A stretch of 64,000 nt of DNA, from NCBI RefSeq assembly GCF_964213995.1, contig NC_135830.1, positions 19,344,001 to 19,408,000 on the forward strand, given 5' to 3'. Made by a program: the position numbers and the translations under genes. This document shows, piece after piece, positions 6,351-61,346 of the stretch (within the stretch, counting starts at the first letter, position 1; every line of letters begins with the position of its first letter). The notes under the pieces are model-generated. The model had not been told where the DNA came from and searched no databases. It saw only the letters and a list, made by a program, of their open reading frames with translations. The stretch comes from Mustelus asterias. Taxonomy: Eukaryota.

Positions 6351-6726
6351 ATCGACAAGAGCAGGTCAGCGGCTGGAAATCCTGCAGCGAGTAACTCACC
6401 TTCTGACTCCCCAAAACCTATTCACCATCTACAAGACACAAGCCAGGAGTGTGCAGGAACTCACCAAAGGCAATTTCAACAGCACCTTCCAAACCCAAGA
6501 CTTCTACCATCTGAATGTTCTCTTCCAAGTCACTCGCCATACTTACTTTGATTCCCTACAGTGTAGAAGAAAGTTATTTAGCCAATTGGGTCTGCACCGA
6601 CTCTCTAAAAGAAAATCTGACTCAGCCCAATCGACCTGACCTGCACATCGTTGGACTGTGGGAGGAACACAGAGGACCTGGAAGAAACCAAGCAGACACG
6701 ACAAGAACGCTAGAACTCCCATGGCC

Positions 6727-8320
6727 GGTATCACGGTAGCACAGTGGTTAGCACTGCTGCTTCACAGCTCCAGGGACCTGGGTTCGATTCTCGGCTTGGG
6801 TCACTGTCTGTGTGGAGTTTGCACATTCTCCTCGTGTCTGCGTGGGTTTCCTCCGGGTGCTCCGGTTTCCTCCCACAGTCCAAAGATGTGCGGGTTAGAT
6901 TGATCAGTCATGCTAAAATTGCCCTTAGTGTCCTGGGATGCGTAGGTTAGAGGGATTAGTGGGTAAATATGTAGGGATATGGGGGTAGGGTTTGGGTGGG
7001 ATTAGAACATAGAACATAGAACATTACAGCGCAGAACAGGCCCTTCGGCCCACGATGTTGCACCGACCAGTTAAAAAAAAAAAACTGTGACCCTCCAACC
7101 TAAACCAATTTCTTTTCGTCCATGAACCTATCTACGGATCTCTTAAACGCCCCCAAACTAGGCGCATTTACTACTGATGCTGGCAGGGCATTCCAATCCC
7201 TCACCACCCTCTGGGTAAAGAACCTACCCCTGACATCGGTTCTATAACTACCCCCCCTCAATTTAAAGCCATGCCCCCTCGTGCTGGATTTCTCCATCAG
7301 AGGAAAAAGGCTATCACTATCCACCCTATCTAAACCTCTAATCATCTTATATGTTTCAATAAGATCCCCTCTTAGCCGCCGCCTTTCCAGCGAAAACAAT
7401 CCCAAATCCCTCAGCCTCTCCTCATAGGATCTCCCCTCCATACCAGGCAACATCCTGGTAAACCTCCTCTGCACCCTCTCCAAAGCCTCCACATCCTTCC
7501 TGTAATGTGGGGACCAGAACTGCACACAGTACTCCAAGTGCGGCCGCACCAGAGTTGTGTACAGTTGCAACATAACGCTACGACTCCTAAATTCAATCCC
7601 CCTACCAATAAACGCCAAGACACCATATGCCTTCTTAACAACCTTATCTACTTGATTCCCAACTTTCAGGGATCTATGCACACATACACCTAGATCCCTC
7701 TGCTCCTCCACACTATTCAAAGTCCTCCCGTTAGCCCTATACTCAACACATCTGTTATTCCTACCAAAGTGAATTACCTCACACTTCTCCGCATTAAACT
7801 CCATCCGCCACCTCTCGGCCCAACTTTGCAACCTGTCTAAGTCTTCCTGCAAACTACGACACCCTTCCTCACTGTCTACCACACCACCGACTTTGGTGTC
7901 ATCAGCAAATTTGCTAATCCACCCAACTATACCCTCATCCAGATCATTAATAAATATTACAAACAGCAGTGGCCCCAAAACAGATCCCTGAGGTACACCA
8001 CTTGTAACCGCACTCCATGATGAATATTTACTATCAACCACCACCCTCTGTTTCCTATCCGCTAGCCAATTCCTGATCCAATTTCCTAGATCACCCCCAA
8101 TCCCATACATCTGCATTTTCTGCAGAAGCCTACCATGGTGAACCTTATCAAACGCCTTACTAAAATCCATATATACCACGTCCACTGCCTTGCCCCCATC
8201 CACCTCCTTGGTCACTTTCTCAAAAAACTCTATAAGGTTAGTAAGGCACGACTGTGGTCGGTGCAGCCTTGATGGGCCGAATGGCCTCTTTCTGTGCTGT
8301 AGGGTTTCTAAGATTTCTTT
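6727..8320 (+). mobile_element. V-SINE (HE1-like), interrupted by the CR1 insertion at 7004-8252
   Basis: Head CACGGTAGCACAGTGGTTAGCAC. The consensus GGGTGGGATT|GTGGTCGGTGCAG is split at 7003/8253. Confidence 0.85.
7004..8252 (-). mobile_element. 5'-truncated young CR1 LINE with uninterrupted RT ORF (7100-8215)
   Basis: 371-aa ORF with DFSKAFDKV, GVPQGSVLGP, KFADDTK; (AGAACAT)n tail; nearly identical to 37851-39100. Confidence 0.95.
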
Positions 8321-29579: not shown

Positions 29580-29618
29580 GGTTTTTGTACGAGATCTCCC
29601 TGTGTTTGCAACAGTGTG
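29580..29618 (-). promoter_or_regulatory. 23-RSS of array V5 (variant heptamer)
   Basis: CACACTG-23-ACAAAAACC. Confidence 0.9.
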
Positions 29619-29951
29619 CCTCTCGGCGCAAAGATAGGTGGCAGCGTCTGAAACCTGTACGTCTCTCACGGTCAGGATGCTGAGTTTGTTGCTTTCAACG
29701 ATCGAAGCAGTGATCCTCCCGTGTTGATCGGTTCCTCTTGTGGCCATCACCAGATGCTGGGGTGACTGATTCGGGAGCTGTTTGTACCAACGCAGGGTGT
29801 TAAACGTAATGGAGCCGGTGCAGTTCATGGATACATTTCCCGCTTCACTGACAACCATCCGTGGAGGGAGCTGCAGCAACTCAGCTTCTCCGGTCACCCC
29901 CGTACAGATCAGAGTGAAAAACAACAAAAAGTCGATGCAAACCTTGAGCAT
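29619..29951 (-). CDS. Intronless TRAV-like segment, copy 5
   Basis: CDR1 GSITFNTLR; ends YLCAER. Confidence 0.92.
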
Positions 29952-30524
29952 TCTCAGTTAACACGCAACACCGAGATCAGCTTAGAACCAGGAGATGAAA
30001 GTTAACCGGGAGGCAAATGCTTTCTTCGTGTCCAGTTTAGTGCCGTGTTTCTGTTGAACTAGCAACAGTAGGCAGGTTCTCCTTTAACCATCCACACTGA
30101 GCGCTTAACACTGATACCAGCTCACAAAGCCTTTGAAGACTCACCTGACCCGCCCAGATTAAAGATTTCTCATGCCTCACACTGCTCTCTGCTGGTGCAC
30201 GCTGGTAGTTGCAGGGTGCAATTCTTTACTTGGGCTGTCGACAAGTTGCAGTTCACAAGATGGTTGCAAATGAGAACAATTGTTTACTCTTTCCTGTTAT
30301 GGAACTTTTATTGCGGGCCAGCTTATACCTCTCGTTTATTCTACTATCCAACGATTGCAATGTATTTTCCCCTCTCATTCTTGCGGAAGTTTTATTCCAC
30401 ACTGTGACCAGTCCCAGTGTGACAAGAAGAAGGCCCAGATGTTAGTCCTAAAATAGCGTTCGATAATTTAGGAACTTGTGTCATGGGAACTGGTCTATCT
30501 ATCGAATATTAGTCACATAACAAC

Positions 30525-30857
30525 TCTCGGCCTTTTGGCTAAGATCAAGTGTATGGACGGCAGCCCATGGTCGGCCGCACTTGGTCGAGGTCATTAGATT
30601 ACGCTGAGGCTTCATATGTTTCATATGAAGCAATTTTTAAAAGCGGCATCTCGGCCTTTTGGCTAAGATGCAAATGAGCTCAAGTCTTGGAGGAGGAACC
30701 TCCCCCTTCTCCAATCAGCTTGGCTCATGTAGATCAGGCCCAGGACAGGGTGGTTTGGTCGCTCGCCCTGTCTTGTCAGCCTGGATCTGAAATGTCTCAA
30801 CTTGTTGAGACTCTGAATTGGATTTGATTTGATTGAATTGGAAAAGTATTTTAAAAA
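30525..30857 (+). mobile_element. U2 snRNA-headed SINE-like retroposon with target-site duplication
   Basis: Starts with U2 nt 7-35 (TCTCGGCCTTTTGGCTAAGATCAAGTGTA). A second U2 nt 7-27 copy is at 30649-30669. Short A tail. TSD (A)TTAGTCACATAACAAC at 30508-30524 and 30858-30874. Absent from the 11 sibling units. Confidence 0.9.
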
Positions 30858-31200
30858 ATTAGTCACATAACAACAGGAATGGCAACATTGAAAATTCACA
30901 AGAATATTTTTTAAAATAACAAGTTTGATATCAGTGTTATAACTATGTTTCCGTTTCCTCATTTGTTGCACCAAACAAATTTTCTTCAATAAAGACAGTG
31001 GCTCCGATATTGAACTTAATTCAGTGTCCTTCTGCCCTCTCCTGGGGTCAAAAGGCACTACAATATACAACTTTAAAACAACCTGCTGCACTTTTGGAAC
31101 CAAGATTGATTCCAACAATTGCCGAACATACACTTTCCCCAGTATGAAGTATATTTTTCATTTATCTTCTTTTGGAATGCGCCTGGTAGTATCGAACCTG

Positions 31201-33350
31201 AACAAAGAACAAAGAACAAAGAACAGTACAGCACAGGAAACAGGCCCTTCGGCCCTCCAAGCCTGTGCCGCCCCTTGGTCCAACTAGACCAATCGTTTGT
31301 ATCCCTCCATTCCCAGGCTGCTCATGTGACTATCCAGGTAAGTCTTAAACGATGTCAGCGTGCCTGCCTCCACCACCCTACTTGGCAGCGCATTCCAGGC
31401 CCCCACCACCCTCTGTGTAAAAAACGTCCCTCTGATGTCTGAGTTATACTTCGCCCCTCTCAGCTTGAGCCCGTGACCCCTCGTGATCGTCACCTCCGAC
31501 CTGGGAAAAAGCTTCCCACTGTTCACCCTATCTATACCCTTCATAATCTTGTACACCTCTATTAGATCTCCCCTCATTCTCCGTCTTTCCAAGGAGAACA
31601 ACCCCAGTCTACCCAATCTCTCCTCATAGCTAAGACCCTCCATACCAGGCAACATCCTGGTAAACCTTCTCTGCACTCTCTCCAATGCCTCCACGTCCTT
31701 CTGGTAGTGCGGCGACCAGAACTGGACGTAGTACTCCAAATGTTGCCTAACCAGCGTTCTATACAGCTGCATCATCAGACTCCAGCTTTTATACTCTATA
31801 CCCCGTCCTATAAAGGCAAGCATACCATATGCCTTCTTCACCACCTTCTCCACCTGTGTTGCCACCTTCAAGGATTTGTGGACTTGCACACCGAGGTCCC
31901 TCTGTGTTTCTATACTCCTGATGACTCTGCCATTTATTGTATAACTCCTCCCTACATTATTTCTTCCAAAATGCATCACTTCGCATTTATCCGGATTAAA
32001 CTCCATCTGCCACCTCTCCGCCCAATTTTCCAGCCTATCTATATCCTGCAGTATTGCCCGACAATGCTCGTCGCTATCCGCAATTCCAGCCATCTTCGTG
32101 TCATCCGCAAACTTGCTGATTACACCAGTTACACCTTCTTCCAAATCATTTATATATATCACAAATAGCAGAGGTCCCAGTACAGAGCCCTGCGGAACAC
32201 CACTGGTCACAGACCTCCAGCCGGAAAAAGACCCTTCGACCACTACCCTCTGTCTCCTATGGCCAAGCCAGTTCTCCACCCATCTAGCCACTTCTCCTTG
32301 TATCCCATGAGCCTTAACCTTCTTAACCAACCTGCCATGTGGGACTTTGTCAAATGCCTTACTGAAATCCATATAGACGACATCCACGGCCCTTCCTTCA
32401 TCAACCGTTTTTGTTACTTCCTCAAAAAACTCCACCAAATTTGTAAGGCACCACCTCCCTCTTACAAAACCATGCTGTCTGTCACTAATGAGATTGTTCC
32501 GTTCTAAATGCACATACATCCTGTCTCTAAGAATCCTCTCCAACAACTTCCCTACCACGGACGTCAAGCTCACCGGCCTATAATTTCCTGGGTTATCCCT
32601 GCTACCCTTCTTAAACAACGGGACCACATTCGCTATCCTCCAATCCTCAGCGACCTCACCCATGTCCAAAGAAGCGACAAAGATTTCCGTCAGAGGCCCA
32701 GCAATTTCACCTCTCGTCTCCCTGAGCAGTCGAGGATAGATGCCATCAGGCCCTGGGGCTTTGTCAGTTTTAATGTTCCCTAAAAAACCTAACACTTCCT
32801 CTCTTGTAATGGAGATTTTCTCTAACGGGTCAACACCTCCCTCCGAGACACTCCCGGTTAACACGCCCCTCTCCTTCGTGAATACCGATGCAAAGTATTC
32901 ATTTAGGATCTCCCCTATTCCCTTGGGTTCTAAGCATAATTCCCCTCCTTTGTCCCTGAGAGGTCCGATTTTCTCCCTGACAACTCGTTTGTTCCGAACG
33001 TATGAAAAGAATGCCTTAGGATTCTCCTTAATCCTGCCTGCCAAGAACATCTCGTGACCTCTTTTTGCCCTTCGAACTCCCCGTTTGAGATCTTTCCTAC
33101 TCTCTCTGTATTCCTCCAGAGCTCCATCTGTTTTCAGTTGCCTGGACTTCACGTACGCCTCCCTTTTCAATTTAATCAGATCCTCAATTTCCCTGGTTAT
33201 CCACGGCGCTCGAAATCTACCGTTCCTATCTTTCCTTTTTACAGGCACATGCCTATCCTGCAGCCTTATCAATAGTTCCTTAAAAGACTCCCACAGGCCA
33301 GACGCGGACTTACCCACGAACATCCTCTCCCAATCAACATCCACCAATTC
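31201..33350 (-). mobile_element. 5'-truncated young CR1 LINE inserted in array unit 5; open RT frame from about 33350 to 31284
   Basis: About 690 aa uninterrupted, with PGPDG, NYRPVSLTS, QHGF, DFSKAFD, GVPQGSVLGP, KFADDTK. (AACAAAG)n tail. Flanked by CCTGA on both sides; sibling units read GAACCTGACTTTC. Confidence 0.95.
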
Positions 33351-34542
33351 CTGACTTTCATTATTGCAACTCATTGATCATCCGGTGCTGCAACATTTTC
33401 TTCAGAGCGGAGTCATGGAAATTGTGTCACTCCGCCCCTTTCCTCAGGACTTCAGATAAATGGAAAATAGATGACTTTAAAATTTCCTTCTAATACAAGA
33501 TGCGAGTTGGGGGGGATATTGGTAATTGGGTCTAACAGCTTGAAATACAGCAGTGTTAATTCTGACGAAATACACGATTGATTGTGATGATCAAGCAGTT
33601 TGCCAAAACCGACTTCTTCGCAACCCGACATTTTGAAAAAACACCATTATGTTAGCCAACTCTGGGCTGCAGCTGAGCAAAGCTGCCGCTTAAACCTGCG
33701 TCCAAACTCTCACAGCGTTGGAAACCAGTTGAACCCTGGTACAGGTACTTCCCCAGCTTTGTAGATCAAATCCCCAGCCTACTGCGGTCAATTATAAGGG
33801 CGAGCAGATGTGAAGGTTGTCTGGGCTAACCAATCCGTTACTGTGAACACGATGTTTTGAATAAGAATGCTGCGAAAATTGCAAGTGATCAAGATCCTAA
33901 AATCAGGGACTACATGCGGAGTCCACCCACTCTCATTCTCCGTAAATCTATGAAACAGCCAGTTCCATCCCTCCATTTATCCGATTTAAAGGATGATGCT
34001 TGGCTATTTACCGCATTGTTATAGTCAATTCCCTCAGGACTCTGTGACCTCTTGCATCAGCTACGGGGAGCTTTCACAGTCAGAGAGCAGCTCTTTTAAT
34101 TTGGGTTCCGGTTATGATCCAGGAACAACATTGCCTGATTTAAAAATAAAAGCAAATCACTGCGGATGCTGGAATCTGAAGCAGAAAGAGAAAATGCCGG
34201 AAAATCTCAACAGGTCTGGAAGCATCTGTGAGGAGAGAAAAGAGCTGACGTTTCGAGTCCAGATGCCCCTTTGCCAAAGCTAAAAGGCATAGAAAGTGGG
34301 AGATATTGCTGTGAGGCAGCAGTAGTAACTGCTGTGCTACCGTGCCGCCCACTCATTCTGACTTACATGTAACCGCTTCCATTTTCTTCAAAAGCAGTTC
34401 CAGCTCTCTTCGTTTTAACCTTTTAAAAATTTTCTGATTCAAGATATGTTTTGCTCTTTCCCCTTACCCTGGGGATTTAATACCGCGCTTCTTAAATTGT
34501 TGGTGTTTCAGGCATGGCGGAGCGTGTTTTGAAAACGGTGCA

Positions 34543-37375: not shown

Positions 37376-37950
37376 TCTCAGTTAACACGCAACACCGAGA
37401 TCAGCTTCGAACCAGGAGATGAAAGTTAACGGGGAGCCAAATGCTTTCTTCGTGTCAAGTTTAGGGCCGTGTTTCTGTTGAACTAACAACAGTAGGCGCG
37501 TTCTCCTTTAACCATCCACATTGAGCGCTTAACACTGATACCAGCTCACATCGCCTTTGAGCACTCACCTGACCCGCCCAGAGTAAATATTTCTCATGCC
37601 TCACACTGCTCTCTGCCGGTGCACACTGGTAATTGCAGGGGGCAATTCTTCACTTGGACTGTCGACAAGTTGCAATTCACAAGATAGTTGCAAATGAGAA
37701 CAGTTGTTTACTCTTTCCTGTTATAGACCTTTTATTGCGGGAGAGCTTACAGCTCTCGTTTATTCTACTATCCAACGATTGCAATGTATTTTCCCCTCTC
37801 ATTCTTGCTGAAGTTTTATTCCACACTGTGACCAGTCCTGGTGTGACAAGAACATAGAACATAGAACATAGAACATTACAGCGCAGAACAGGCCCTTCGG
37901 CCCACGATGTTGCACCGACCAGTTAAAAAAAAAAACTGTGACCCTCCAAC

Positions 37951-40770
37951 CTAAACCAATTTCTTTTCGTCCATGAACCTATCTACGGATCTCTTAAACG
38001 CCCCCAAACTAGGCGCATTTACGACTGATGTTGGCAGGGCATTCCAATCCCTCACCACCCTCTGGGTAAAGAACCTACCCCTGACATCGGTTCTATAACT
38101 ACCCCCCCTCAATTTAAAGCCATGCCCCCTCGTGCTGGATTTCTCCATCAGAGGAAAAAGGCTATCACTATCCACCCTATCTAAACCTCTAATCATCTTA
38201 TATATTTCAATAAGATCCCCTCTTAGCCGCCGCCTTTCCAGCGAAAACAATCCCAAATCCCTCAGCCTCTCCTCATAGGATCTCCCCTCCATACCAGGCA
38301 ACATCCTGGTAAACCTCCTCTGCACCCTCTCCAAAGCCTCCACATCCTTCCTGTAATGTGGGGACCAGAACTGCACACAGTACTCCAAGTGCGGCCGCAC
38401 CAGAGTTGTGTACAGTTGCAACATAACGCTACGACTCCTAAATTCAACCCCCCTACCAATAAACGCCAAGACACCATATGCCTTCTTAACAACCTTATCT
38501 ACTTGATTCCCAACTTTCAGGGATCTATGCACACATACACCTAGATCCCTCTGCTCCTCCACACTATTCAAAGTCCTCCCGTTAGCCCTATACTCAACAC
38601 ATCTGTTATTCCTACCAAAGTGAATTACCTCACACTTCTCCGCATTAAACTCCATCCGCCACCTCTCGGCCCAACTTTGCAACCTGTCTAAGTCTTCCTG
38701 CAAACTACGACACCCTTCCTCACTGTCTACCACACCACCGACTTTGGTGTCATCAGCAAATTTGCTAATCCACCCAACTATACCCTCATCCAGATCATTA
38801 ATAAATATTACAAACAGCAGTGGCCCCAGAACAGATCCCTGAGGTACACCACTTGTAACCGCACTCCATGATGAATATTTACTATCAACCACCACCCTCT
38901 GTTTCCTATCCGCTAGCCAATTCCTGATCCAATTTCCTAGATCACCCCCAATCCCATACATCTGCATTTTCTGCAGAAGCCTACCATGGTGAACCTTATC
39001 AAACGCCTTACTAAAATCCATATATACCACGTCCACTGCCTTGCCCCCATCCACCTCCTTGGTCACTTTCTCAAAAAACTCAATAAGGTTAGTAAGGCAC
39101 GACCTACCTGCCACAAAACCATGCTGACTATCACCTATCAATTCATTACTCTCCAAATAACTATAAATCCTATCCCTTATAATTTTTTCCAACATCTTGC
39201 CGACAACAGAAGTGAGACTCACCGGTCTATAATTCCCGGGGAAGTCTCTGTTCCCCTTCTTAAACAATGGGACAACATTCGCTAACCTCCAATCTTCTGG
39301 TACTATACCAGAGGCCAACGACGACCTGAAGATCAGAGCCAGAGGCTCTGCAATCACTTCTCTTGCCTCCCAGAGAATCCTTGGATAAATCCCATCCGGA
39401 CCAGGGGATTTATCTATTTTCAGACCCTCCAGAATATCCTGCACATCCTCCTTATCAACTGTAATACTGTCTATTCTACTCCCCTGCAACCCAGTGTCCT
39501 CCTCAGCTATATTCATGTCCCCTTGCGTGAACACCGAAGAGAAATATTGGTTCAATGCTTCACCAATCTCCTCCGGTTCCACACATAACTTCCCTCTGCC
39601 ATCTATAACTGGCCCTAAACTTGCCCTAACCAACCTTCTGTTCTTGACATACCTATAGAACGCCTTAGGATTCTCTTTAACCCTATCCGCCAAAGTCTTC
39701 TCATGTCCCCTTTTAGCCCTTCTAAGCTCGCTCTTCAACTCCCTCTTAGCCAATCTAAAGCTTTCTAGTGCACTACCCGAGTGCTCACGTCTCATCCGAA
39801 CATAAGCCTCCTTTTTCTTTTTAACCAACAAAGAAACTTTTTTGGTGCACCACGGTTCCCTAGCCCTACCAATTCCTCCTTGCCTGACAGGGACATACCT
39901 ATCACAGACTCGCAGTAGCTGCTCCTTGAAAAAACTCCACATGTCGGACGTTCCCAGTCCCTGTAATCTCCTAGTCCAACCTATGTTTCCTAATTCTCTC
40001 CTAATAGCCTCATAATTACCCTTCCCCCAGCTAAAACCACTGGCCCGAGGTTCATGCCTATCCCTTTCCATCACTAAGGTGAACGTAACCGAATTGTGGT
40101 CACTATCACCAAAATGCACACCAACTTCCAAGTCTAGCACCTGGTCTGGCTCATTTCCCAGCACCAGATCCAATATAGCCTCACCTCTAGTTGGCCTGTC
40201 TACATACTGAGTCAAAAAACCTTCCTGCACGCTTTGAACAAAAACTGACCCCTCTAACGAGCTAGAGCTATAACAATTCCAGTCAATATTAGTCAAGTTA
40301 AAATCCCCCATAACAATTGCCCTATTACTTTCACTCCTAAGCAGGATTGACTCCGCAATCCTTTCCTCAACCTCTCTAGAACTTTTAGGAGGTCTATAAA
40401 AGACTCCCAACAGGGTGACCTCTCCTCTCCTATTTCTAATCTCCGCCCATACTACCTCAACAGATAAGTCCTCATCAAACCTCCTCTCTGACACTGTGAT
40501 ACAATCTCTGACCAATAATGCTACCCCTCCCCCTCTTCTACCTCCTTCCCTACTTCGACTAAAACATTTGAACCCCGGGACCTGCAGCATCCATTCCTGC
40601 CCCTGCTCTATCCATGTCTCTGAAATAGCCACAACATCGAAGTCCCAGGTACTGATCCACGCTGCAAGTTCACCCACTTTATTGCGAATACTCCTGGCAT
40701 TGAAGTATACACATTTCAAACCCTGCTCCACCCCACCTCTGCAATGCCGTGCATTGCAGTCCCCATCCAT
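37951..40770 (-). CDS. CR1 LINE ORF2: APE endonuclease plus reverse transcriptase (939 aa, intact)
   Basis: YFNARSI, ISETW, GGGVAL, YRPP, MGDFN, ILDLVL, GDSDH (APE); QHGF, DFSKAFD, PQGSVLGP, FADD (RT). Confidence 0.95.
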   Translation of the reverse strand: MDGDCNARHCRGGVEQGLKCVYFNARSIRNKVGELAAWISTWDFDVVAISETWIEQGQEWMLQVPGFKCFSRSREGGRRGGGVALLVRDCITVSERRFDEDLSVEVVWAEIRNRRGEVTLLGVFYRPPKSSREVEERIAESILLRSESNRAIVMGDFNLTNIDWNCYSSSSLEGSVFVQSVQEGFLTQYVDRPTRGEAILDLVLGNEPDQVLDLEVGVHFGDSDHNSVTFTLVMERDRHEPRASGFSWGKGNYEAIRRELGNIGWTRRLQGLGTSDMWSFFKEQLLRVCDRYVPVRQGGIGRAREPWCTKKVSLLVKKKKEAYVRMRREHSGSALESFRLAKRELKSELRRAKRGHEKTLADRVKENPKAFYRYVKNRRLVRASLGPVIDGRGKLCVEPEEIGEALNQYFSSVFTQGDMNIAEEDTGLQGSRIDSITVDKEDVQDILEGLKIDKSPGPDGIYPRILWEAREVIAEPLALIFRSSLASGIVPEDWRLANVVPLFKKGNRDFPGNYRPVSLTSVVGKMLEKIIRDRIYSYLESNELIGDSQHGFVAGRSCLTNLIEFFEKVTKEVDGGKAVDVVYMDFSKAFDKVHHGRLLQKMQMYGIGGDLGNWIRNWLADRKQRVVVDSKYSSWSAVTSGVPQGSVLGPLLFVIFINDLDEGIVGWISKFADDTKVGGVVDSEEGCRSLQEDLDRLQSWAERWRMEFNAEKCEVIHFGRNNRCVEYRANGRTLNSVEEQRDLGVCVHRSLKVGNQVDKVVKKAYGVLAFIGRGVEFRSRSVMLQLYTTLVRPHLEYCVQFWSPHYRKDVEALERVQRRFTRMLPGMEGRSYEERLRDLGLFSLERRRLRGDLIEIYKMIRGLDRVDSDSLFPLMEKSSTRGHGFKLRGGSYRTDVRGRFFTQRVVRDWNALPTSVVNAPSLGAFKRSVDRFMDEKKLV

Positions 40771-40822
40771 GCATCCCTCACTTTCAGCCCCACTACTCAG
40801 GATCCCTCCCCCCCCCCCCGAA

Positions 40823-41434
40823 TCAGTTTAAACCTCCCTGCATGGCCTTAGCAAATTTACCCCCCAGGATATTGGTCCCCTTCTGATTAAGGTGTAGACC
40901 ATCCTTCTCATAGAGGTCACACCTTCCCCAGTACGAGCCCCAATTGCTTAAGTACCTGAACCCCTCCCTCCTGCACCATCCCCTCAGCCATGAATTCAAA
41001 CCTTCCCTCTCCCTATTGCTCTCTAAACTATCCCGTGGTACAGGCAAGAGTCCAGAGATAACCACTCTGTCAGTCTTGGCCTTTAGTTTCCACCCCAACT
41101 CCATAAATCCCTGCCTAATATCCCCTTCCCCTATCCTCCCTATGTCGTGTGTCCCCACATGTACAATAACTTGTGGTTTATCTCCCTCCCCCCTAAGAGT
41201 CCTGAATACCCTGTCAGACACATCCCGGACCCCAGCCCCTGGTAGGCAACACACCAACCCTGAGTCCCTACCTTTAGTTCCGACCCTCCTATCTGTCCCC
41301 TTAATTGTGGAGTCCCCAATCACAAGGCCCAGTCTTTTACAGCCCCTAACCACCTGAGCTTTCTCACTCGGCTCACCCCCAGAGATCTGCTCTCTATGCT
41401 CAGTTGATTCCTCCTCAACTGTAGCCTCCAGCAC
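40823..41434 (-). CDS. CR1 LINE ORF1 C-terminal part, SGNH/GDSL esterase-like domain (5'-truncated)
   Basis: LVIGDS, CLPGA, VHVGTHD, DGLHLN blocks. Confidence 0.88.
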   Translation of the reverse strand: MLEATVEEESTEHREQISGGEPSEKAQVVRGCKRLGLVIGDSTIKGTDRRVGTKGRDSGLVCCLPGAGVRDVSDRVFRTLRGEGDKPQVIVHVGTHDIGRIGEGDIRQGFMELGWKLKAKTDRVVISGLLPVPRDSLESNREREGLNSWLRGWCRREGFRYLSNWGSYWGRCDLYEKDGLHLNQKGTNILGGKFAKAMQGGLN

Positions 41435-43067
41435 CGAAAACCTATTATGGAGGCCCAGATGTTAGTCCTAAAATAGCGTTCGATAATTTGGGAAGTTGTG
41501 TGATGGGAACTGGTCTATCTATCGAATATTTGTTACATAACCACAGGAATGGCAAACATTGAAAACGCATAAGAATATTTTTTTTAAATAATAAGTTTGA
41601 TATCAGTGTTGTAATTATGTTTCTGTTTCCTCACATGTTCCTTCAATCAAATTTTCTTCAATAAAGACACTCGCTCTGATATTGAACTTAATTCAGTGTC
41701 CTTCTGCCCTCTTTGAAACAACCTGCTCCGCTTCTGGAACCAAGATTGTTTCCAACAATTGCCGATCATGCACTTTCCCCAGCATGAAGTATATTTTTCA
41801 TTTTTCTTCTTTTGGAATGCGCCTGGTGGTATCGAACCTGACTTTAATTATTGCAACTCATTGATCATCCGGTGTTCCAACATTTTCTTCAGATCGGAGT
41901 CATGGATATTGTGTCACTCCGCCCCTTTCCTCAGGAACTCAGATGAATGGAAAATAGATGACTTTAAAATCTCTTTCAAATACAAGATGCGAGTTGGGGG
42001 CGGATATTGGTAACTGGGTCTAACAGCTTGAAATACAGCAGTGTTAATTCTGACAAAATACACGATTCATTCTGATGATCAAGCAGTTTGCCAAAACCGA
42101 CTTCTTCGCAACCCGACGTTTTGAAAAAACACCATTATGTTAGCCAACTCTGGGCTGCAGCTGAGCAAAGCTGCCGCTTAAACCTGCGTCCAAACTCTCA
42201 CAGCGTTGGAAACCAGTTGAACCCTGGTACAGGTACTTCCCCAGCTTTGTAGATCAAATCCCCAGCCTACTGCCGTCAATTATAAGGGCGAGCAGATGTG
42301 AAGGTTGTCTGGGCTAACCAATCCGTTACCGTGAACAGGATGTTTTGAATAAGAATGCTGCGAAAATTGCAAGTGATCAAGATTCTAAAATCAGGGACTA
42401 CATGCGGAGTCCACCCACTCTCATTCTGCGTAAATCTATTAAACAGCCAGTTCCATCCCTCCATTTATCCGATTTAAAGGATGAAGCTTGGCTATTTACC
42501 GCATTGTTATAGTCAATTCCCTCAGGACTCAGTGACCTCTTGCATCAGCTACGGGGAGCTTTCACAGTCAGAGAGCAGCTCTTTTAATTTGGGTTCCGGT
42601 TATGATCCAGGAACAACATTGCCTGATTTAAAAATAAAAGCAAATCACTGCGGATGCTGGAATCTGAAGCCGAAAGAGAAAATGCTGGAAAATCTCAACA
42701 GGTCTGGAAGCATCTGTGAGGAGAGAAAAGAGCTGACGTTTCGAGTCCAGATGACCCTTTGCCAAAGCTAAAAGGCATAGAAAGTGGGAGATATTGCTGT
42801 GAGGCAGCAGTAGTAACTGCTGTGCTACCGTGCCGCCCACTGATTCTGACTTACATGTAACCGCTTCCATTTTCTTCGCAAGCAGTTCCAGCTCTCTTCG
42901 CTTTAACCTTTTAAAAATTTTCTGATTCAAGATATGTTTTGCTCTTTCCCCTTACCCTGGGAATTAATACCGCGCTTCTTAAAATGCTGATATTTCAGGC
43001 ATGGCGGAGCGTGTTTTGAAAACGGTGCAGGTTTTTGTACGAGATCTCCCTGTGTTTGCAACAGGGA

Positions 43068-43400
43068 GATCTCGGCGCAAAGATAGGTGGCAGCGTCTGA
43101 AACCTGTACGTCTCTCACGGTCAGGATGCTGAGTTTGTTGCTTTCAACGATCGAAGCAGTGATCCTCCCATGTTGATCCGTCCCTCTTGTGGCCATCACC
43201 AGATGCTGGGGTGACTGATTCGGGAGCTGTTTGTACCAACGCAGGGCCTGTAACGTAATGGAGCTGGTACAGTTCATGGATACATTTCCCGCTTCACTGA
43301 CAACCATCCGTGGAGGGAGCTGCAGCAACTCTGCTTCTCCGGTCACCCCCGTACAGATCAGAGTGAAAAACAACAAAAAGTCGATGCAAATCCGGAGCAT
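43068..43400 (-). pseudogene. Intronless TRAV-like segment, copy 8; open frame but RSS heptamer destroyed
   Basis: CDR1 SSITLQALR. The nonamer (43030-43038) and spacer are intact, but the heptamer position reads ACAGGGAGATCTCG on the plus strand, leaving no CAC on the coding strand. Confidence 0.88.
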
Positions 43401-45492
43401 TCTCAGTTAACACGCAACACCGAGATCAGCTTAGAATCAGGAGATGAAAGTTCACCTGGAGGCAAATGCTTTCTTCGTGTCCAGATTAGTGCCGTGTTTC
43501 TGTTGAACTAACAACAGTAGGCGGGTTCTCCTTTAACCATCCACACTGAGCGCTGAACACTGATACCAGCTCACACTGCCTTTAAGCACTCACCTGACCC
43601 GCCCAGATTAAATATTTCTCATGCCTCACACTGCTCTCTGCCGGTGCATACTGGTAATTGCAGGGTGCAATTCTTCACTTGGACTGTCGACAAGTTGCAA
43701 TTCACAAGATAGTTGCAAATGAGAACAGTTGTTTACTCTTTCCTGTTATAGACCTTTTATTGCGGGAGAGCTTACAACTCTCGTTTATTGTACTATCCAA
43801 CGATTGCAATGTATTTTCCCCTCTCATTCTTGCTGAAGTTTTATTCCACACTGTGACCAGTCCCGGTGTGACAAGAAGAAGGCCCAGATGTTAGTCCTAA
43901 AATAGCGTTCGATAATTTGGGAAGTTGTGTAATGGGAACTGGTCTATCTATCGTATATTTGTTACATAACCACAGGAATGGCAACATTGAAAACTCATAA
44001 GAATTTTTTAAAAAATACTAAGTTTGATATCAGTGTTGTAATTATGTTTCCGTTTCCTCATTTGTTCCTCCAAACAAATTTTCTTCAATAAAGACATTCG
44101 CTCCGATATTGAACTTAATTCAGTGTCCTTCTGCCCTCTCCTGGGGGCAAAAAGCACTACAATATACAACTTTAAAACAACCTGCTGCACTTTTGGAACC
44201 AAGATTGTTTCCAACAATTGCCGATCATACACTTTCCCTAGTATGAAGTATATTTTTCATTTTTCTTCTTTTGGAATGCGCCTGGTGGTATCGAACCTGA
44301 CTTTCATTATTGCAACTCATTGATCATCCGGTGTTGCAACATTTTCTTCAGAGCGGAGTCATGGATATTGTGTCACTCCGCCCCTTTCCTCAGGTGTTCA
44401 GGTAAATGGAAAATAGATTACTTTAAAATCTCCTTCTAATACAAGATGCGAGTTGGGAGGGGGATATTGGTAACTGGGTCTAACAGCTGGAAATACAGCA
44501 GTGTTAATTCTGACAAAATACATGATTGATTGTGATGATCAAGCAGTTTGCCAAAACCGACTTCTTCGCAATCCGATATTTTGAAAAAACACCATTATGT
44601 TAGCCAACTCTGGGCTGCAGCTGAGCAAAGCTGCCGCTTAATCCTGCGCCCAAACTCTCACAGCGTTGGAAACCAGTTGAACCCTGGTACAGGTACTTCC
44701 CCAGCTTTGAAGATCAAATCCCGAGCCGACTGCGGTCAAATGTAAGGGCGAGCAGATGTGAAGGCTATCTGGACTAACCAATCCGTTACCGTGAACACGA
44801 TGTTTTGAATAAGAACGCTGCGAAAATTGCAAGTGATCAAGATTCTAAAATCAGGGACTACAGGCGGAGTCCACCCACTCTCATTCTGCGTAAATCTATG
44901 AAACAGCCAGTTCCATCCCTCCATTTATCCGATTTAAAGGATGATGTTTGGCTATTTACCGCATTGTTATAGTCAATTCCCTCAGGACTCAGTGGCCTCT
45001 TGCATCAGCTACGGGGAGCTTTCACAGTCAGAGAGCAGCTCTTTTAATTTGGGTTCCGGTTATGATCCAGGAACAACATTGCCTGATTTAAAAATAAAAG
45101 CAAATCACTGCGGATGCTGGAATCTGAAGCCGAAAGAGAAAATGCTGGAAAATCTCAACAGGTCTGGAAGCATCTGTGAGGAGAGAAAAGAGCTGACGTT
45201 TCGAGTCCAGATGCCCCTTTGCCAAAGCTAAAAGGCATAGAAAGTGGGAGATATTGCTGTGAGGCAGCAGTAGTAACTGCTGTGCTACCGTGCCGCCCAC
45301 TCATTCTGACTTACATGTAACCGCTTCCATTTTCTTCAAATGCAGTTCCAGCTCTCTGCGTTTTAACCTTTCTAAAATTTTCTGAATCAAGATATGTTTT
45401 GCTCTCTTTCCCCTTACCCTGGGGATTTAATACCCCGCATCTTAAACTGCTGATATTTCAGGCAAGGCGGAGCGTGTTTTGAAAACGGTGCA

Positions 45493-55372: not shown

Positions 55373-56234
55373 ATGTCTCCTGTGACTCTTTGCTTATTCT
55401 TCACAGTGGCAGCTCTATTAACCGGTAGGTTCATAAATTGCAAACTCTGTGTTCACGTTTTTACCATTCACTGCAATCAGTTGAGCAGTTCCATTAACAC
55501 ACTGGTAAAATATATATTAATTCTAAACGAGTAAATCACCCGGATCCATTTTGTCTCAGCAAAGGAGGAGGCACAATTCCCCAGGTGAATGAGAGTGAAG
55601 AGTTAAGATGGGATTGCAGGCCCCGTCGCAGCCAGTGAGGGACCTTGACCAACACGAGATCTCTAAACCCACAGACAGTTTAGTTTCCCCGTCAAATTAC
55701 ATGAAACGAAGGCGAGGATCTGATCTCCTTAGAAGGTGTTCATTTAACGGAGTTTCATGTAACCGCTCCTAATACGTTCCCGTTACAACCTGTGTGTTGT
55801 GGCAAATATATTTCTGCTTCGACCCGGTTGATTTCCCAGATTATTGGCCAGGGTGACGGGCCAAATCCGGCTATTAACCAAAGTGACCTGACATCGTTTA
55901 ATTTAACATGACTCTTGGTTCTTACAGGACATAGTGGAGGCGACTCGGTCTCACAGATACCAGCTGCAGTCACAACGAGTGAAGGAGATGATGTTCAGCT
56001 ATTCTGTAATTATACAGCTATAATCATTGAGAATTATTATCTATTCTGGTACCGTCAGTATCCCAGCGGTTCCATGGAGTATCTGCTGAAGAGAAACAAA
56101 TTCACCGGGAACACAGAGAGATTCCCAGGGGACCGTTTTTCAGCGGAGCTCAATGATACAACGAGCGCCATTCTGCTGAAATTGTCGAGCACAGAACTGT
56201 CAGACTCCGGGGTATATTACTGCGCGCTAAGTCA
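55373..56234 (+). CDS. Intact conventional TCR alpha/delta V segment (leader exon 55373-55424, intron 55425-55927, V exon 55928-56234)
   Basis: MSPVTLCLFFTVAALLT-G|GTAGGT...TTACAG|HSGGDSVSQIP..QLFCNY..LFWYRQYP..DRFSAEL..SDSGVYYCALS; phase-1 intron; open frame. Confidence 0.93.
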
Positions 56235-56273
56235 CACAGAGACACAGAGCTGGGCTGAACCTGTACAAAAACT
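56235..56273 (+). promoter_or_regulatory. 23-RSS
   Basis: CACAGAG-23-ACAAAAACT. Confidence 0.88.
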
Positions 56274-56588
56274 GCCAGAGCCTCACTCAACATAACAGAG
56301 CGTGAGGCAAACATTGTGATCAGGGATGCGTATGAATTGCAATGGTATCTAGTATTTTTAATTCTAATACGTACTTTCAGTTGTTCTAAATATGTCATGA
56401 CAAAACACATCGATGCGAATTGGCCAGTTGTTTAATGAACATAGACAATTTATAGAGCGTTTTTCTTGATGCCCGGAAGTATTTGACTGTCACGGTTATG
56501 ATGTACCAGAGACAGCACAACGTCCAATGTGAGCCCTGTATGACAGACCAATCACGAATTTTATAATGACCTGTCGGTTTATAATGGC

Positions 56589-56744: not shown

Positions 56745-59700
56745 GAGGTGCCGGAGGACTGGAGGACAGTCATGTGGTATCATTATTCCTGACCGGAGGA
56801 AAGGATAAATCAGGAAACGCCAGGCATGTCTGTCCAGCTTCAGTGATGGAAAACAATTGGAAGCAATTCTGATAAAAGGAATTCATCGGCAGTTGGAGAG
56901 GCAGAGATTAATCACGAATAGTCAGCATGGCTTTATTAAGAGGAGTCATCCATTCCTTGCTTGCTCAAAAAAAACAAATTTAAAATAAAATTGAATTCAA
57001 TTCATGGTTTCCACAAGAGAGAAAAGACATATCCAAGCTGACAAGATAAGGCATTGCATCCCATTATAAGAACATAGGAATTAGGAGTAAGAGTAGGCAA
57101 TTCAGCCCTTCCAGACCCCTCCGCCAATCTATATGATCATGGCCTATCTCCATCTCCTCCTAACTTCACTTCCCTGCCTTTTCCCCATAGCCATTTATCC
57201 CGCTTTTGGTCAATCTGTCTCTTTCTTGAATCCATTGATGCATTCTGCATCCACTGCACTCTGGGACAGTGAGTTCCATAGATCCGCAACCCTCTGTGAG
57301 AAGTAGCTTCTCCTAATCTTTGTCTCGAACCTCCCACCCCACCCTCCCATCCCTTATCTACAACTATGACCTCTTGACCTAGACTGTTCTAGAAGGGGAA
57401 ACATTTGACCAACATTTACTTTCCCAATCCCGTTGAGTGTTTTATATATCTCAAGCAAATCTCCCCCTCATTCTTCAGTACGCCAGCGAGTATAAGGCCA
57501 AGCTACTAAACCGCTCCTCATACGGGAGCCCCTTCAAGATACTGATGTGACCACATCTGGAATACCGTCACCAGTTTTGGGCCTCTTAGTTAAGGACATA
57601 GGTTAATACATTGGAGAAAATTCAGGGAAGGTTTACAAGCATGATCCCCAGTATGGAGGGATGGTCTTATGAGGAATGGTTCAACAGGAAGTATTCTACT
57701 CACTGGAATTTAAAAGAATGAGAGGTGATCTCATTGAAATATATAGGATTATTGAGGGGCTTGACAGGGTACATGCTGAGAGGATGTTTCCCTTATTGGG
57801 AGAATCCAGGCCCAGAGGGAACAGTCTCAGAATAAAGGGATGCCAATTGAAAACTGAGATAGAACATAGAAATAAATACAGCACAAACAGGCCCTTCGGC
57901 CCACAAGTTGCGCCGGTCATGTCCCTACCTACCTAGGCTTATATATAGGCTTACCTATACCCCTCAATCCTATTAAGTCCCATGTACTCATCCAGCAGTC
58001 TCTTAAAATACCTTATCGAGTTTCCCTCCACCATCACTGACGGCAGCCGATTCCACGAACACACCACCCTCTGAATGAAAAACCTACGCCTGACATCTCC
58101 TCTGTACCTACTCCCCAGCACCTTAAACCTGTGTCCTCTCGCAGCAGCCATTTCAGCCCTGGGAAAAAGCCTCCGAGAATCCACCCGATCTATACCTCTC
58201 AACATCTTGTACACCTCTATCAGGTCACCTCTCATCTTTCGTCTCTCCAAGGAAAAAAGACCGAGCTCCCTCAACCTATCCTCATAAGGCATGCCAACCA
58301 ATCCAGGCAACATCCTTGTAAATCTTCTCTGCACCCTTTCAATAATTTCCACATCCCTCCTGTAATGAGGCGACCAGAACTGAGCACAGTACTCTAAGTC
58401 GGGTCTGACGAGGGTCTAATCAAGCTGCATCATTATCTCCCTACTCCTAAACTCAATCCCTCGATTGATGAAGGCCAGCACACCATACGTCTTCTTAACC
58501 ACCTCCTCTACCTGCGAGGCCGATTTAAGAGTCCTATGGACCCGGACCCCAAGGTCCGTCTGATCATCTACACTGCTAAGAGTCTTACCCTTGATATTAT
58601 ACTCCTTCATCCCAGTTGACCTGCCAAAATGGACCACTACACATTTATCCAGATTGAAGTCCCCCTGCCACTTCTCCGCCCAGTCTTGCATCCTATCTAT
58701 GTCACGCTGCAGCTTCTGACATTCCTCCAAACTATCCACAACACCACCAACCTTCGTGTCGTCGGCAAACTTACCAACCCATCCCTCCACTTCCTTATCC
58801 AGGTCATTTATGAAAATGACAAACATCAATAGTCCCAGAACAAATCCCTGGGGCACTCCACTGGTGACCGACCTCCATTCAGGAAAAGACCCATCTACAA
58901 CCACTCTCTGCCTTCTGCAGGCAAGCCAGTTCTGGATCCACAAGGCAACAGCCCCTTGGATCCCATGCCCTCTCACTTTCTCGAGAAGTCTTGCATGGGG
59001 GACCTTATCGAACGCCTTGCTGAAGTCTATGTAAACCACATCTACCGCTTTTACATCAACAATGTGTTTAGCCACATTTTCAAAGAACTCCACCAGGCTC
59101 GTAAGGCACGATTTGCCTTTGACAAAGCCGTGCTGACTGCTTTTGAGCATACTAAACTTCACTAAATGTTCATAAATCCTATCCCTCAGGATCTTCTCCA
59201 TCAACTTACCAACCACTGAGGTTAGACTCACCGGTCAATAATGTCCTGGGCTATCTCTATTCCCTTTCTTGAATATAGGAACCACATCCGCAGTCCTCCA
59301 ATCCTCCGGAACCTCTCCCGCCTCCATCGACGACGCAAAGATCATCGCCAGAGGCTCTGCAATCTCTTCCCTCGCCTCCCACAGTACCCTGGGGTACATC
59401 CCAACCGGTCCCGGCGACTTATCTATCTTGATGCTATTCGAAATTTCCAACAGATCCTCTTTCTTAATGTCCACATACTCAATCTTTTCAGTCCACCGCA
59501 ATCCTGTAGTACAACCACCCAGGTCTTTTTCCACCGTGAATACCGAGGTAAAATATTCATTAAGCACCTCTGCTATTTCTTCCGGTTCTGTACAGACTTT
59601 CTCACCTTCACATTTTATAGGTCCTATTCCTTCACATCTCATCCTTTTACTCTTCACATATTTATAGATGAGGAGCAATTTCTTCTTTCTGAGGGTCGTG

Positions 59701-60456: not shown

Positions 60457-61346
60457 GGCTTCATGGCACAGAAGTACACGGCGCTGTCAGACAGAAGCAT
60501 TCCGACGATATCCGGTGGTGGTATAGTGGTATTGTCACTGGATTAGTAATTGGGAGACCCAGGATAATGCACTGGAGGCCTGGGTTCGAATCCCACCATG
60601 GTAGGGATAAACATTTGGAATTAAGGCTGGAATGTTGGGCGGCACGGTAGCACAGTGGTTAGCACTGCGGCTTCACAGCTCCAGCGACCTGGGTTCGATT
60701 CCCGGCTTGGGTCACTGTCTGTGTGGAGTTTGCACATTCTCCTCGTGTCTCCGTGGGTTTCCTCCGGGTGCTCCGGTTTCCTCCTACAGTCTAAAGATGT
60801 GCGGGTTAGGTTGATTGGCCATGCTAAAATTGCCCCTTAGTGTCCTGGGGTGCGTAGATTAGAGGGATTAGCGGTGGAATATGGGGGTAGGGCCTGGGTG
60901 GGATTGTGGTCGATGCAGACTCGATGGGCCGAATGGCCTCTTTCTGTACTGTAGGGTTTCTATGATTTCTGTGATATTTAAAAGGACCGTTTTGTTTCCT
61001 TTGTGCAAAGCAGCAGAAAATCTATCCGAAGAATTTTCAGACGTGTCTCCCGTGCCATATATATTCAATAAATATTTCGGAGCTTCCCTGGGAGATTGGA
61101 TGTACCAGAACAGAGTCGGAGCACCAGCTGTCGAGTAACTGCAGTCCAGTGTTATGGTCTGTCCTTCCTGAACCGTCAATTCAGGGGGATCTTGGGACAC
61201 TTCATCTTTGCCATTGGTTCCTGCAACAAATTACAGAATTTATTAAAACTCTGGTCGTGAACGCTGGGAACAGACAGTGGCTATTTAAACACAGGCTCAC
61301 CGGGCAGAAAAACCAACAGTATTAGCAAAGAAAATTGGGAGAACAT
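60457..61346 (-). pseudogene. TCR alpha/delta V gene disrupted in FR3 by SINE insertions (leader 61346-61301, V exon from 61220)
   Basis: MFSQFSLLILLVFLP-G|GTGAGC..TTGCAG|TNGKDEVSQDPP..TLDCSY..LFWYIQSP..DRFSAAL..LLNITE, then SINEs at about 60513-60968, then DIVGMLLSDSAVYFCAMKP. Confidence 0.88.
60513..60968 (+). mobile_element. tRNA-derived SINE head (about 60513-60605) followed by a full V-SINE (60637-60968)
   Basis: GGTATAGTGGT...GGGTTCGAATCCCACC, then GGGCGGCACGGTAGCACAGTGG...GGTTTCTATGATTT. Confidence 0.85.

Follow-up and report, generated by a model that had tools for sequence, protein, structure and literature searches.

Does the short U2-headed insert found in one unit of a shark T-cell receptor array represent a single accident of reverse transcription, or a copy of a retroposon family with its own history? 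We addressed this question in a 64,000-nucleotide stretch of the Mustelus asterias genome (contig NC_135830.1, positions 19,344,001 to 19,408,000, hereafter the window), in which positions are counted from the first letter. The host locus is a tandem array of units of about 2.46 kb, each with a minus-strand V gene that resembles those of T-cell receptor alpha. The array units are about 94% identical to one another, and the ATG of the host V gene is about 570 bp away from the insert, which sits upstream of it in the opposite orientation. The features used below are the following.

29618..29951, minus strand: T-cell receptor V gene of the host unit, leader and V, with a 23-bp RSS
30508..30524, plus strand: 5' copy of the target-site duplication (TSD), single in the 11 sibling units
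30525..30553, plus strand: outer head, U2 snRNA nt 7-35, exact (RF00004 alignment)
30554..30608, plus strand: small hairpin followed by an arm (30575-30608) that can pair with the U2 head (helix probabilities 0.80-1.0)
30609..30631, plus strand: perfect 10-bp hairpin (fold)
30632..30642, plus strand: end of the left unit, a T5-A4 run, Sm-like without the closing G (alignment, fold)
30646..30676, plus strand: inner head, a modified copy of U2 nt 4 to about 33 that retains stem I with 3 additional bp, ATGCAAAT at 30668-30675 (21-nt repeat, gapped extension, fold, Rfam consensus)
30674..30728, plus strand: long hairpin S2, 21 bp, with CCAAT at 30711 (fold)
30730..30789, plus strand: long hairpin S3, 24 bp (fold)
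30794..30811, plus strand: perfect short hairpin ahead of the tail (fold)
30812..30857, plus strand: tail, degenerate GAATT/GATTT repeats leading into TATTTT and a run of 5 A (6 if the first base of the TSD is included)
30858..30874, plus strand: 3' copy of the TSD, identical to 30508-30524 at 17/17 positions
56979..57052, minus strand: decayed sequence related to the 3' end of the insert and truncated at its own 5' end, also ending in TATTTTAAA, directly behind a CR1 tail

The insertion and its target site

The 333-bp insertion at 30525-30857 (plus strand) was confirmed. All 17 bases of the duplication at 30508-30524 and 30858-30874 are alike, or 16 if the first A is counted as tail, and the site is empty in each of the 11 aligned sibling units. 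The initial annotation, made from the letters alone, had described just such an insert, with a 16-17 bp TSD, a short A tail and no counterpart in the 11 siblings. Both TSD copies carry the private variants of the host unit, so that the insertion is younger than the split of this unit from its siblings. The same annotation had set the long TSD apart from the CR1 inserts nearby, and rightly so: the junctions of the two CR1 inserts of the array, judged from BLAST ends, have only an overlap of about 5 bp and a 2-bp gap, and the 17-bp TSD thus distinguishes the U2-headed insert from them.

The insertion site differs from TT/AAAA, the mammalian L1 target consensus (PMC5322556), and the A tail can pair with the primer over one base at most. 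Recognition of a 3' structure therefore fits better than annealing of a poly(A) tail.

U2 pieces, layout and predicted fold

The Rfam U2 model (RF00004) matches consensus nt 7-35 only, with an E-value of 7.4e-5 and 32.5 bits, below the gathering score of 46; no Rfam match anywhere in the 64-kb window reaches its gathering score. Over 30525-30553 the alignment is exact, which bears out the first description of the head. A second, inner U2 copy is exact across 21 nt (30649-30669), extends to about nt 33 once one inserted base is allowed, and starts at nt 4 of the Rfam consensus, with one change. It had been annotated as a copy of nt 7-27 running into the octamer ATGCAAAT; the exact copy stands, but there is no simple stop at nt 27. 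Since the inner copy can be aligned to about nt 33, the octamer consists of altered U2 letters, and we rejected its reading as a captured DSE octamer. The changes in the inner head comprise a stem I longer by 3 bp and the creation of ATGCAAAT; of the other occurrences of this octamer in the window, 10 sit in V-gene leaders.

Past about nt 35, nothing in the insert is clearly U2 according to Rfam, and the two non-U2 parts give matches at chance level only. The element looks dimeric in layout, with two U2-started units: a left one (30525-30642) and a right one (30646-30857), each opening with a U2 5' piece and closing with TTTTAAAA. The 3' end of the right unit is made of a perfect hairpin, degenerate GAATT/GATTT repeats and TATTTT, followed by 5-6 A. 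This hairpin and pentamer-repeat tail also resembles the tails of L2, CR1 and RTE elements. In a motif search, the insert contains no A or B box, no AATAAA and no 3' box; no tRNA was found in it, and it holds four T-runs of 4 or more. A canonical Pol III SINE (SINE1/2/3) was rejected on the lack of A/B boxes and tRNA and on the four internal T-runs, and a DNA transposon on the absence of a terminal inverted repeat.

The predicted fold of the insert is very stable, with a minimum free energy of -147.1 kcal/mol (z -9.74, 0/100 shuffles equally stable) and 246 of the 333 nt paired. The most stable of 192 window tiles of the same size reached -135.1 kcal/mol. When both strands were folded as RNA, the plus strand gave -147.1 (z -9.2) and the minus strand -110.5 (z -5.3); folded as DNA, the plus strand led by much less (-60.9 and -55.8). 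Among transition mismatches in six stems, counted on a strand-neutral alignment, 17 were G·U and 3 A·C (p 0.001), a count somewhat inflated by the choice of stems from the plus-strand fold; the three long stems alone gave 12 and 2. The insert is thus predicted to fold as an RNA of the plus strand. The three hairpins and stems named in the initial annotation are all present in this fold, with pair probabilities of 0.84-1.0. A closing helix between 30634-42 and 30849-57 was dropped as evidence because TTTTAAAA is palindromic.

Within this predicted fold, the outer U2 head is paired over about 25 bp with the arm at 30575-30608, and its native stem-loop I has a pair probability of 0.000. The head/arm duplex has an energy of -31.1 kcal/mol, and none of 2228 window tiles paired as strongly (mean -13.6, best -28.7). 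Among its mismatches, 6 are G·U and none is A·C. An arm complementary to the head, with this bias, suggests that head and body evolved together, most likely in a master element and before the insertion. The masking arm is a concrete feature, not described for SINEU in the available text of PMC4494074.

Relatives and candidate origins

The insert probably represents a young member of a SINEU-like retroposon family, non-autonomous and U2-headed, one that would have arisen independently of the crocodilian SINEU and been mobilised by Tx1/L1-clade machinery. The defining traits of SINEU are heads from U1 or U2, added recurrently, together with A tails, runs of oligo-T and mobilisation by Tx1-Mar; no promoter was found in them (Kojima 2015, PMC4494074). 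The insert combines a U2 head, a non-coding length below 500 bp with an A tail, and a TSD with empty siblings. Three observations speak indirectly for a multi-copy family amplified as a unit rather than for a sum of chimeras, namely the co-folded head, an old relative in the window and the distribution of its words in an index of sequencing runs. Against the family stands the fact that no second full-length copy was seen. The proposal of a young, U2-derived, SINE-like retroposon with L1/Tx1-type integration is supported by the anatomy, the in-window relative and, indirectly, the run index.

The relative at 56979-57052 was detected by BLASTN with 74% identity over 70 nt (E 2.7e-6), and its local score of 79 exceeds the background (mean 31, maximum 53.5). 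It matches the last 80-90 nt of the insert only and no longer folds (z +1.8). It may be an old member of the family or the terminal part of a partner LINE. Two window matches of a degenerate pattern were left uncounted, the pattern having been built from both places.

The run index was queried with 34 sampled 31-letter words of the insert; it lists 24 sequencing runs and gives word shares only, with the part of the element unspecified. Shares of 0.23-0.85 were found in 17 of the 24 listed runs, from 9 studies with 8 organism labels and 2 metagenome labels, the latter unused as evidence of habitat. Once P1, a study that may be the source, is removed, 13 rows (three of them from one sample) from 8 studies remain, with 7 further organism labels. 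Three runs with shares of 0.09-0.12 were left out as too small, and four of the 24 held next to none of the words. The no-word runs include three with a share of 0.00, one of 1335 million letters that shares its sample with a holder run, and two that share organism and study with another holder, which argues against a very high copy number. No RNA run is among the holders listed. U2 genes alone cannot yield these matches, since the U2 match of 29 nt is shorter than a 31-letter word. Assemblies of 1-380 million letters make up eight of the 17 holders. Even the genome of the elephant shark, a compact one (0.77-1 Gb, PMC5381603), is much larger than these, so that a repeated sequence is a likelier source of the words than one locus; this argument is tempered by the fact that the holders were selected out of many runs. 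The matches could also be explained by close species sharing one locus. Shares of 0.35-0.65 correspond to about 96.7-98.6% identity if differences are evenly spread, or to an exact match to one unit, the share expected for the right unit alone being 0.60. Exact-pattern scans of JGI metagenomes, IMG/VR and GTDB gave 0 matches and are uninformative, shark DNA being unexpected in these collections.

How such a family might have moved can be sketched. Pol II would produce a plus-strand transcript of a master copy, either from a U2-type promoter upstream or by read-through, the choice of Pol II resting on the lack of A/B boxes and the four T-runs of 4 or more. Folding of the element RNA would hide the U2 piece and prevent it from acting as a U2 decoy. 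An ORF2 protein of the Tx1/L1 clade would recognise the 3' hairpin and tail, and insertion would use target-primed reverse transcription, the two nicks lying 16-17 bp apart. The family may have grown stepwise, each step adding a U2 5' piece that ends near nt 33-35, on the right unit first and then with the left. Recurrent head addition was described by Kojima for SINEU-1 and -2 (PMC4494074). No Tx1/L1 element was recognised among the long ORFs of the 64-kb window, and judged from the hairpin-plus-repeat tail, the partner LINE could be of L2/CR1/RTE type.

Among known systems, SINEU-1 and SINEU-2 share with the insert a non-coding length below 500 bp, a U2 head that does not start at nt 1, multiple snRNA pieces, internal oligo-T runs, no Pol III promoter, an A tail and a TSD; the shark insert differs in its lineage, in having no U1 piece, a tail of 5-6 A and no Mariner-N4 target, and in its masking arm and strong fold, features that the available description of SINEU does not include (PMC4494074). 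SINEU-3 likewise opens with some 30 nt from the 5' end of U2 and has a 16-bp TSD, but it retains an 83-bp middle U2 fragment, whereas the insert has no clear U2 beyond about nt 35 (PMC4494074). Set against SINEU by description, the insert works like these elements, and membership by descent is unlikely. HE1, SacSINE1 and SINE2-1_CM are also short retroposons of cartilaginous-fish genomes, but they are all tRNA-headed and have CR1-type partners (PMC3747384).

Crocodilian SINEU was correctly named in the initial annotation as the known case of snRNA-headed SINEs, and PMC4494074 states in its available text that crocodilians were the only group in which SINEU was found. PMC5786205, PMC4758252, PMC12054243 and PMC5381603, in the parts available, cite SINEU for crocodilians only or without another lineage, and a term search of the available text of PMC5499810 returned no mention of snRNA or SINEU. 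Among the matches listed, there was no paper on a shark U2-headed SINE, in a search whose scope excluded subscription journals, Repbase and Dfam; the suggestion that the element is undescribed holds within that scope.

An unlikely alternative is a one-off composite, in which a common LINE/SINE tail was joined to the left unit or to the U2 head by template jumping during a single insertion, the index matches reflecting either the common part or the orthologous locus of close species. Both units end with TTTTAAAA, as end-to-end template jumping would give, the relative at 56979-57052 is limited to the last 80-90 nt, and the shares of 0.35-0.65 in other organisms would fit the right unit alone. 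SINEU-2 moreover shows independent 5' additions of snRNA pieces (PMC4494074). Nevertheless, the arm complementary to the head, with its one-sided mismatches, must predate the insertion; a body shaped against the U2 head before insertion is not expected of a one-off chimera. The inner head is already remodelled, and the words occur in small assemblies under several organism labels. Tailless U2 retropseudogenes and snRNA-L1/Alu chimeras also combine a 3'-truncated U2 piece with a TSD, but they are single events without a co-folded body (PMC5322556, PMC4494074), and of the vertebrates screened, only therians and anole had the tailless forms (PMC5322556).

To about the same small degree, we consider that the insert may derive from a U2-targeting LINE such as Keno or Utopia, or from a U2-headed Tx1 LINE, with a master residing in a U2 gene and carrying the U2 5' end because it is co-transcribed from the U2 promoter. 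This would account for transcription. Keno (Tx1 clade) and Utopia (NeSL) are LINEs that target U2 genes, whose sequence resumes at nt 39 behind the 3' end of the element (PMC4640811, PMC6136364). Their shared site lies 3 nt past the nt-35 end of the head, so that the proximity pointed out in the initial annotation is real; the junction falls in the branch-point recognition region, Utopia 5' junctions vary, reptile Utopia has long TSDs (20 bp; PMC4640811), and crocodilians have U2-headed Tx1 families (PMC4494074). Yet Keno and Utopia are protein-coding and are followed by U2 nt 39 onward (PMC4640811, PMC6136364), whereas the insert is non-coding and lies outside U2. Its head ends at nt 35 rather than 37-38, no U2 from nt 39 follows the tail, and the 3' flank is the TCR-V unit. 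The target, compared by hand with the U2 site, agrees at 6/11 positions in the better register, which is not above chance. No coding remnant was found either: the longest open frame has no credible protein match and gives no sign of coding origin, and a 60-aa antisense frame of the body, compared with 1.84 billion protein representatives, gave 2 weak matches to multi-stretch proteins (36-39% identity), which carry no information on copy number. The specific proposal of a non-autonomous Keno derivative is not supported, given the end of the head at nt 35, the lack of a 3' U2 flank and a target that is not a U2 gene.

A further, unlikely possibility is a currently active shark family with a domesticated U2 head. 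The arm would hide the head in cis and pair with host U2 in trans, recruiting U2 for head renewal or localisation, and the inner-head octamer together with CCAAT would form the element's own Pol II promoter. If true, this would answer in a second lineage how snRNA-headed SINEs get transcribed.

It is very unlikely that the insert was copied from a functional RNA of the host (a variant snRNA, a scaRNA, or a viroid-like or retrozyme RNA) rather than from a selfish element: the fold is very strong and strand-specific, an Sm-like run lies between two hairpins roughly at the place of the U2 Sm site, and there is a weak two-hairpin likeness to SCARNA21, but no Rfam family reaches threshold (SCARNA21, 15.4 bits against 60), the Sm site has no G, there is no box C, the head lacks native U2 stem-loop I, the hammerhead core CUGANGA is absent from both strands, and the circular fold (-142.0) is weaker than the linear one (-147.1). 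Individual candidates were rejected accordingly: a functional U2 or variant snRNA (sub-threshold Rfam score, stem-loop I probability 0.000, Sm site without G), a ribozyme or circular RNA of the retrozyme or viroid-like type (no Rfam ribozyme match, core motifs absent, weaker circular fold), an H/ACA or C/D guide RNA (fold, motifs and Rfam scores) and a miRNA family (mir-26, 17.4 bits against a threshold of 57).

Returning to a young U2-headed family, SINEU copies are mostly old and have no known promoter (PMC4494074). If true, a young, intact and independent family in cartilaginous fish would mean that snRNA-headed retroposons arise repeatedly, and would offer a testable substrate for the mode of transcription and the mobilising LINE. 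The importance would be modest were the element already in Repbase or Dfam, or a one-off chimera. What is new here is the head-masking arm, the dimer-like layout, the octamer made of altered U2, the 3'-end relative and the run-index distribution.

The host array and its other elements

The region 19500-54100 contains 12 T-cell receptor alpha/delta-like V genes in tandem, in which the leader is in frame with the V exon and no intron separates them. Judged from this arrangement, the array possibly stems from a processed V gene that was later amplified. In 11 pattern-matched V genes, the heptamer is CACACTG in 7 and the canonical CACAGTG in 4, with a 23-bp spacer in each. The twelfth V unit (42927-43406, minus strand) diverges in sequence past the conserved Cys, which suggests a small deletion at its RSS. 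The ATGCAAAT octamer of the insert (30668-30675) lies about 720 bp upstream of the ATG of one V gene, and it is possible that it affects the use of this adjoining gene. Two further, unrelated V-type frames lie outside the array (55912-56295 and 60868-61230).

Other mobile elements were also seen. A young CR1 at 37853-41461 (minus strand), located within one array unit, has an ORF2 of 958 aa preceded by a frame of 212 aa, and a 5'-truncated CR1 at 31200-33377, 330 bp from the U2-headed insert, has a 697-aa frame. Copies of a tRNA-headed SINE, which we take to be HE1-like and which, with the CR1 tails and the gene context, point to a cartilaginous fish as host, occur at about 6720-7000 and at 2520-2750; the former is the most stable other 333-nt tile in the window (-135.1 kcal/mol).
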